Source: Eledone cirrhosa
Lineage: Eukaryota
NCBI GenBank assembly: GCA_964016885.1
Contig: OZ024752.1
Coordinates: forward strand, 6,510,001-6,574,000
Direction of reading: 5' to 3'
DNA: 64,000 bases
Position 1 is the first letter of the stretch; every line of letters begins with the position of its first letter. The notes under the pieces are model-generated. The model searched no databases, was not told the origin of the DNA, and saw only the letters and a program-made list of their open reading frames with translations. The position numbers and the translations under genes were made by a program. This document shows positions 55,566 through 57,486 of this stretch, piece after piece.

Positions 55566-56346
55566 ATATGTTTATATATGGAAGGGGGAGTGAGTCTGTG
55601 TTTACATTAGTGTCTTTACCTATTGATAAAATACATATCAGACTTGAAAAATATAAGTAGTGGTGTTGATGTGATTAATTATAATATGTTAAGGTGGTGC
55701 TCCAGCATGGCCACAGTTTAGTGACAGAAACCAGTAACAGAATAAAAGAAACAAAAATGAGTTTAGTATATTCTTAAGGCAGATGCAATGAATATACATA
55801 CGAAAATAATATTTAATTGGTATTAGTTAATTAGATAAGTTAATTGAATAACGAGTAAAAGAATATTTTACATGTGTGCCAGAAATTGGAATGTAGAAGT
55901 GAGGTGAAGTCCTCCGACCAAGGAGGAAAGTCTAACTACTCAGAATAGAACTCAAACCATTCCAGCAGGAGAAGTAAATATAAAGTGGTGGTGGTGATGA
56001 TGGTGGTGGTGGTGGTGGTGGTGGAGACAGGGGGGGGGGTCTTAGAATAGGTGTTTAAAATATTGTAGTACTTCAAACATTAACTGAATGAGACCTGACT
56101 TACCTATCAAACCCATGCAAGTTTGAAAAATAAATGTAAAATGATTATATATATATATATATATATATATACACATATATATATATATATATATACAATA
56201 TGTTGAAAAGGTAACACACCAGAGAGAGATATACAGTGCGCTATCAATAAAACAGGGAAAAAACCACCAGTGTATGGAATCTATACATATATATAGATGT
56301 AGACTGAACACTTTCATGTTCACAAGTGTTTTAGGCCTTTTTACCT

Positions 56347-56416
56347 TATTTTATCTGATGAGAACACAATTTTTGTCCCAGGATGATGTTGTTTTCGAAA
56401 TGCGCATAATAAAATA
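56347..56416 (+). ncRNA. Type I hammerhead ribozyme motif
   Basis: Stem I TATTTTAT/ATAAAATA; CTGATGA at 56355; stem II closed by GAA/TTC; GAAA; palindromic A-TGCGCA-T; AUA cleavage triplet. Confidence 0.8.
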
Positions 56417-57486
56417 TATGGAACTTTTTTAACCATCTTTTAATTTCTTTTATATATATATATATATATATATATATAAATATATATATATATATATATA
56501 TGTATATATATATATATATATATGTATATATATATATATATATATATATATATATATATATATATGTATATATATGTATATATATATATATATATATATA
56601 TATATATATATATATATATATATATATATATATATGTATGTATAGGAAGCGTAACATGCAGTTACTGTAGGTTTACTCAGGTGAGCACTCGATGTGTAGC
56701 TTCATATCTGCAACGAGGTGTAGAGCTAAACAGTCATCATCATCATCATCATCATCATCATCATCATCGTTTAACATCACTCTTCCATGCTAGCATGGGT
56801 TAGTGTTTAGTGAAAGGTGTGTCACCACTCAAACGTAATGAAGACATAACAAATCGTCCTTTTGCTGAGTTCAATCCCGTCGAGGTTAACTTTGCCTTTC
56901 ATCCTTACGGGGTTGATAAAATAAAGTACCAGTAATGCACTGGGTAATTGCTGGCCTTGTGCCAAACGAAGAAATAATAATAATTATTATTATATATATA
57001 CATAATAATTATTATGAAGACCAAGATCCGAAGAGGACTCAATAAGGATTGCATATATAAAATATATACAAAAACCGTAGAGCAAATATTTATTATTTGT
57101 ACAGATTAAAGTTTAGGCAAAGAATCACTGCTTTCACCCTTTTACGGGACCTTTTGAAACTACATAGATAATGTGTGTGAGTGTATGTATATATGTGTGT
57201 GTGTGTAATATATATATAATATATATATATATATGAGTGTGTTTTATTATTGTTAACTTTGCCTTTCATCCTTACGGGGTCGATAAAATAAAGTACCAGT
57301 AATGTACTGAGTAATTGCTGGCCTTGTGCCAAAAGTAGAAACAATTATTATTTCTGGCAATATAACAATATGATCCTCCCCAATATAATATATATTATAT
57401 ATATATATATATATATATAGATTATATATATAATATATATATATTAATTCAAAATATTAATAAATATAGACATTCATGTAATCAAA

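Follow-up and report, generated by a model that had tools for sequence, protein, structure and literature searches.

A 64-kb window of octopod DNA (the whole stretch analysed, with positions counted from its first letter) holds five intact motifs, and the evidence supports their assignment as type I hammerheads of the Penelope-like kind, with a dimer-type palindromic helix III, inserted at (TA)n; their cleavage is predicted. We read the repeats that carry them as dead, 5'-truncated pseudo-LTR (pLTR) ends of three Penelope-like lineages, with a ribozyme predicted to be dimeric in the parent element and probably a passenger here, and we put the probability of this reading at about 0.7.

Hammerhead motifs and their repeat lineages

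Both strands were scanned with a descriptor consisting of CUGANGA, GAAA, an 8-nt self-complementary stem III and AUA. Intact motifs were found at 56347-56416(+), 40604-40666(+), 11386-11432(+), 11316-11264(-) and 57557-57486(-), and a relaxed scan allowing other cores and other helix III lengths returned the same five. The earlier note on this DNA had described a complete type I hammerhead at 56.3 kb with a predicted cut after 56408, which the scan recovers, and recurrences at five other places; four of these (11.3, 11.4, 40.6 and 57.5 kb) are intact, but the copy at 40105 is broken, reading AUGUACAC-G with loss of U16.1 and of the triplet (H17). Type I boxes, an NUH triplet, helices I and II and ends in stem I are thus present in five of the six noted motifs. 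In all five the 8 nt running from A15.1 through U16.1 are self-complementary, and the triplet is the AUA that the note had ascribed to intact copies (5/5); its statement that stem III is always self-complementary holds for these and fails at 40105. Only the 57.5-kb motif departs from the others in its core, with N7 = G, and the 11.4-kb (+) motif has only four unbroken pairs in stem I. The strict minimal hammerhead, without a helix III or loop 3 beyond the core pairs, is excluded by the 8-nt palindrome in every intact copy, and the motifs belong to the longer palindromic variant class set out in the available text of PMC4209133.

Chance matches within AT-rich repeats have some points in their favour, since stems I and III are AT-rich, the 56.3-kb motif folds freely no better than its shuffles (z = 0.13), and Rfam at gathering score over the window yields a tRNA-like head and no hammerhead. 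Nor is there a hammerhead among the best 150 of 337 Rfam rows at E-values up to 10, nearly all of which are microRNA or other hairpin models on microsatellites; one, MIR5380 at 11272-11427, is the 11-kb inverted pair described below and was rejected, with a score far under its gathering threshold. The motif rate, however, exceeds that of shuffled sequence, the comparison that the earlier note had proposed: with a stem I of at least 5 bp, four motifs were observed against a mean of 0.025 and a maximum of 1 over 200 dinucleotide-preserving shuffles (500-nt blocks), and with the 8-nt palindrome also required, four against none in 200/200, which already refutes chance. The palindrome is moreover kept in three lineages, where a random 6-mer would be self-complementary with a chance of ~0.055 in each, and the intact copies show one core change, at N7. 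We give chance practically no weight; read from the sequence, the hammerhead case stands on conserved boxes and geometry rather than on fold stability.

Self-comparison sorts the repeats into three lineages, A, B and C. Family A is the 56.2-kb unit (56197..56451, +), a non-coding copy of a very high-copy repeat that is single in the window and lies between two (TA)n tracts (56146..56195 and 56451..56640), the second of which begins 43 nt past the predicted cut. Its hammerhead (56347..56416, +) comprises stem I (56347-56354 with 56409-56416), the CUGAUGA box (56355-56361), stem II (56362-56396), GAA (56397-56399) and the palindrome AUGCGCAU (56400-56407), with the predicted cut after A56408. 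Family B has four copies (11.3, 11.4, 40.6 and 57.5 kb) that are 83–98% alike over aligned letters. Two are the arms of an inverted pair, 98% alike, with an 8-nt overlap at their junction (left arm 11213..11368, -, with its 3' end running into (TA)n; right arm 11361..11486, +). A third (40554..40712, +) ends in (TA)n and may start as early as 40411, and the fourth (57440..57610, -) is divergent (83–85% alike), is flanked by (TA)n at either end and has a longer stem II. Family C, at 40.0–40.2 kb, consists of a direct arm (40080..40212, +) with the degenerate hammerhead, its core at 40105, and an inverted, 5'-truncated arm (40019..40076, -) that begins at the palindrome itself and runs out into (TA)n. 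Only in this inverted arm, which lacks the CUGANGA half, is the palindrome intact (AUGUACAU-A, 40076-40068, -). The earlier claim of separate families therefore stands for three lineages, but not for six, four of the copies being one family. A family B profile matches family A over the ribozyme only (E = 0.0027).

In the region 40019-40712 the family C and B insertions adjoin around one (TA)n(CA)n tract. Their ribozymes share a strand at a distance of 500 bp, and pairing between the two palindromes is poor. In each of the three lineages the fourth residue downstream of CUGANGA is an unpaired C (56362-56396, 40623-40642, 40112-40141), and stem II is closed at its base by an N.U pair (in family A by read majority), possibly reflecting a shared tertiary contact.

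An alignment of five of the six motifs, which left out the near-identical 11.4-kb twin, has 97% of its 66 cells paired; two of the four helix III pairs are changed on both sides, and the covariation score was reached by 0/500 shuffles, with three of the five rows coming from one family. Because of that composition we treat the covariation as supportive and not as a statistic. The earlier note overstated the covariation, which rests on three lineages: family B accounts for four of the copies, and its two 11-kb members came from a single inverted insertion.

Insertion anatomy, abundance and the parent element

The association with (TA)n proposed in the earlier note is borne out by the element ends. 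Five of the seven reach a (TA)5+ tract 43–57 nt past the cut position, against a background of 7.7% of positions having such a tract within 60 nt (family C positions were used one base off), and all five loci have at least one such end. The other two ends belong to the direct arms of inverted pairs and continue for ~90 and 148 nt until the next (TA)n. At the 5' side, the family B copies all end differently (40554 or earlier, 11368, 11361 and 57610). Head-to-head inverted pairs occur at two of the five loci (11213-11486 and 40019-40201), with one arm more truncated in each, and the 11-kb pair is predicted to fold as a hairpin of -175.5 kcal/mol. Short palindromic helix III, a motif near the 3' end, variable 5' truncation and inverted pairs (2/5 loci) are all features of Penelope pLTRs.

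A further Penelope feature is the optional tail. The extensions beyond the two direct arms, of ~90 nt (11487..11578, +) and ~148 nt (40213..40361, +) before (TA)n, are each single in the window and longer than the published 30–40 bp, and are candidate tails or plain flank. In the reads, family A copies from run X13 (two variants) and run X4 run beyond the TA stretch into a common 3' extension containing CCAGT(C/T)CTA, a motif that is not above chance in the window. Both window extensions have TAACTCTG near their start and an 11-mer in common; we rejected this likeness between B and C tails as weak, as random segments were as good in 3.3% of cases, and in 24% in an unmasked test.

We considered whether the repeats could instead be discrete non-autonomous families derived from pLTRs, such as retrozyme monomers or SINE-like units, copied by a Penelope-like enzyme and perhaps passing through circular RNA. 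The ~255-bp low-G+C unit suits the 150–450 bp of retrozyme monomers (PMC7229834, available part), retrozyme families may be mostly monomeric and pLTR-like (10.64898/2026.07.22.740005, available part), and in Drosophila willistoni one hammerhead family is found in a large tandem repeat as well as with Penelope elements (PMC4209133, available part). The very high read depth of family A, a window free of any ORF found for the repeats, and 5' limits in other copies that lie beyond the view of the reads, and so are compatible with a fixed-length unit, point the same way. On the other hand, self-comparison revealed no head-to-tail tandem in the window. In the four runs aligned, the three family A read joints listed are all opposite-strand, with 1–3 starts each, and none is a same-strand return, despite 1628 reads that extend a median of 107 nt beyond 56441; a unit longer than ~350 nt would escape this view. 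Variable 5' ends and inverted pairs at two loci also speak against such units; these, together with the candidate tails, agree no less well with 5'-truncated pLTR ends, a point that weakens the earlier note's inference of non-autonomous families. Of its Penelope/retrozyme-like label, the Penelope-like anatomy is retained, but the retrozyme half is weak for want of head-to-tail tandems in the window or read joints. We regard the non-autonomous alternative as unlikely, if well worth keeping in mind.

Family A is a very abundant repeat. Words of its unit occur in 11 of the 15 listed runs (eight organisms, seven studies; a small share in three of the 11), no RNA run being among the 15, and four of the 15 runs were aligned to it. 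Run X1 gave 1788 contigs on the 255 bp, with a summed depth of ~1e5 over the 5' part versus ~1.2e6 across stems III and I; listed single pieces there are 6–19 deep. Run X13, a RAD library, gave 3511 raw reads on family A at depths of hundreds to thousands against ~0.7 expected per copy, for a genome that we take to be ~2.5 Gb; depth of reads or contigs is not a copy number. The rise in depth toward the 3' end was rejected as proof of 5' truncation, because the main subfamily differs from the window copy in stem II and over 56286-56346. In the latter interval the main form appears, by inspection, to lengthen stem I by ~4–5 bp past a bulge. Likewise, the X13 read ends at 56368, 56399 and 56445 were rejected as biological, given the RAD library and the AATT at 56368 and 56442.

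Among the variants listed (40 of 49), none falls within 56397-56416 except G56402T, a selection artefact in that it creates AATT, the RAD site, at 56399. Positions 56396, 56417 and 56426 vary in most reads, and T at 56396 in most copies yields a G.U pair at the base of stem II, like that of family B. A contig from a second organism is identical over 56346-56447 with a different 3' flank, so the stem II of the window copy is a subfamily form and not private decay. A coding signal from the core ATG, with 10 of 18 listed variant places at third positions (P = 0.043), was set aside, as the frame stops after 24 codons. An ATG lies within the core in families A and B, and the frames opening there close after 16–24 codons.

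As the earlier note had stated, the window holds no parent ORF with RT and GIY-YIG: none of 253 filtered stop-to-stop frames of at least 45 aa matches GIY-YIG in Pfam, which is expected of truncated copies. Penelope-like membership is thus suggested by anatomy, and any parent ORF would lie outside the window. A 77-aa frame through family A had one match among 1.84 billion proteins, a tandem-repeat protein (E 1.8e-4, 30%), which we rejected, and scans of metagenome and viral contigs with the hammerhead pattern gave 0 loci. The only RT in the window is an unrelated ORF at 47232-48800(-) with a PHD finger and no link to the hammerhead repeats. This truncated retroelement ORF, presumably RTE-like, has RVT_1 and the PHD finger inside its C-terminal half, a related piece at 613-1332(-), and a position within one of the long minisatellite arrays (8723-10771, 15865-16570, 17829-19424, 26147-27869, 28097-28897, 46353-49816 and 62138-62790), several of which have one unit in common.

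Pieces (3' or 5') of some other hammerhead-bearing retroelement targeting (TA)n, a LINE or a LINE-dependent SINE, would suit a window rich in LINE and SINE pieces beside microsatellites, and 5' inversion occurs in LINEs too. Yet the repeats resemble neither the RT elements nor the SINEs of the window, they have no poly(A) or unit-repeat tail, and their palindromic helix III, of the dimer type, is the form published for Penelope elements (PMC4209133 and PMC6765202, available parts). We find this origin very improbable. Separately, a tRNA-like head at 55499-55556(-) (Rfam tRNA 31 bits, no ARAGORN call) is probably a SINE, and a 100-bp repeat family related to it has more than 10 occurrences (e.g. 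56885-56985 and 57252-57349).

Helix III pairing and the host gene

In an energy model, closing helix III as a hairpin costs 1.7–3.5 kcal/mol in the five intact copies (stem II of the 57.5-kb copy was set slightly off). As 8-bp duplexes, by contrast, the palindromes pair at -10.5 kcal/mol in family A (AUGCGCAU) and at -2.2 to -3.2 kcal/mol in family B, the value of -2.2 kcal/mol being that of AUAUGUAU, which self-pairs only via two G.U pairs; the duplex of an A with a B palindrome has -1.6 kcal/mol. We predict that helix III cannot close in the monomer and that in tandem parent transcripts two same-family motifs would join palindrome to palindrome as an 8-bp helix, forming a dimer whose cleavage would probably be protein-assisted. 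On this prediction lone intronic copies would rarely cut, and the ribozyme of the truncated copies is probably a passenger.

By analogy with Penelope biology, insertion may start with a GIY-YIG endonuclease nicking TA-rich DNA. Reverse transcription would then begin within the element RNA at a fixed ~45–57 nt downstream of the uncut hammerhead, or at a greater distance to leave a tail, and after copying 100–300 nt would halt or switch template, with truncated copies or inverted pairs as the outcome. Such an internal start downstream of the hammerhead, described in the available text of PMC11167929, would account for copies that run through an uncut hammerhead and stop at a fixed distance beyond it.

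The window also contains part of a host gene. On the minus strand, between 27931 and 2622, seven MAGI1 exons match residues 417-821 of P0003, an Octopus-named protein, and an exon that encodes PDZ sequence shares 97% identity with MAGI1 proteins listed under Argonauta and Octopus. No exon for residues 1-416 was found in 28–64 kb, which is likely one long MAGI1 intron; in that case the family A copy is antisense to MAGI1. Could the ribozymes be used by the host to process MAGI1 pre-mRNA? The 11-kb inverted pair lies between MAGI1 exons with its left arm (-) in the gene's sense, two intact motifs are on the gene's strand, and 28–64 kb is likely intronic. But the motifs belong to mass repeats, the family A copy is on the opposite strand to MAGI1, the 11-kb sense copy is locked with its twin in the hairpin of -175.5 kcal/mol, and the energy model makes monomer helix III unstable. 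Host use in this role seems to us most improbable.

A more far-reaching model would have tens of thousands of intact octopod hammerheads, with 8-bp palindromes serving as a family-specific pairing code (A with A at -10.5, A with B at -1.6 kcal/mol) and dimers formed in trans between different host transcripts cutting pre-mRNA introns genome-wide; we hold it to be highly doubtful. The significance would be greater if lone intronic copies did cut host RNA in trans, which we judge unlikely.

Comparison with known systems

The closest likeness is to the hammerheads of Penelope-like elements. In the available text of Cervera and De la Pena 2014 (PMC4209133), palindromic helix III variants belong to pLTRs; most are lone truncated motifs or pairs on opposite strands 100–700 bp apart, and lone truncated motifs and such opposite-strand pairs are also what we see. 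The Drosophila willistoni Penelope motif in the supplement of that paper has an 8-nt palindromic helix III and an AUA triplet, and shares with the octopod motifs the type I fold, the CUGANGA/GAAA core, a palindrome that starts and ends with AU, the AUA triplet and, as we read the text of Fig. S3 with its GAAA column displaced, the basal N.U pair of stem II. The octopod motifs differ from those in the available part of PMC4209133 in a longer stem I (7–12 bp in four of the five intact copies), a longer, interrupted stem II and the absence of a linked ORF, and cephalopods are absent from the supplement. Among the literature matches listed (titles and abstract starts, with subscription journals and repeat databases outside the scope) there was no report of octopus hammerheads or cephalopod ribozymes, and the available part of PMC13282606, which counts 31 Penelope-like families with recent activity in Octopus vulgaris, leaves ribozymes unmentioned. 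Octopods would be added to the hosts of dimer-type Penelope hammerheads, a gain of modest significance. The motif also serves as an annotation tag for an abundant octopod repeat, and the copy number is high enough to support a powerful covariation analysis. For testing dimer cleavage, which the review PMC6765202 (available part) summarises, the GC-rich palindrome of family A is well suited.

Retrozymes offer a partial likeness. Non-LTR retrozymes resemble the octopod repeats in a type I hammerhead on a short, non-coding, low-G+C unit of high copy number and in a dimer-type helix III, as in axolotl, but in the available text of Cervera and De la Pena 2020 (PMC7229834) they are defined by head-to-tail tandems and circular RNA, with units of 150–450 bp, and neither the window nor the read joints contain such a tandem. 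The preprint of Li et al. 2026 (10.64898/2026.07.22.740005), in the part available, derives retrozymes from pLTRs and reports that of nine predicted Xenopus dimers one cleaved and eight did not.

For the insertion itself the best-described counterpart is PAc, the Poseidon element of Anolis carolinensis (Frangieh et al. 2024, PMC11167929). According to the available text, the Poseidon protein makes its nick in AT-rich DNA, and reverse transcription then begins within the RNA, on the 3' side of the hammerhead, at either of two sites that define the tail; the ribozyme cuts only with the protein and is dispensable for insertion. PAc and the octopod copies have in common insertion ends at a fixed distance past the hammerhead, an optional tail (a candidate one in the octopod copies), an AT-rich target and an ATG inside the ribozyme core (families A and B here). 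The PAc start lies ~85–92 nt past the cut site (by subtraction), compared with ~43–57 nt in the octopod copies, and the PAc ORF begins in the ribozyme, whereas the octopod frames soon close. PAc is the one Penelope-like element investigated in vitro, and since no RNA-seq reads ended at its cut site although the ribozyme is active with protein, RNA ends at 56408/56409 are a poor test of activity.

Craig et al. 2021 (PMC8557442), in the part available, describe inverted, 5'-truncated copies with tails of 30–40 bp, and a bias to (TA)n in Naiads and to microsatellites in Neptune; the octopod copies are like these in target bias, inverted truncated copies and candidate tails. The Naiads of that account, however, are without canonical hammerheads and have mere remnants in cephalopods, while the octopod copies have full hammerheads; for this reason Naiads are unlikely as parents. 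Neptune and Penelope/Poseidon, as candidate parent clades, are indistinguishable without the ORF.
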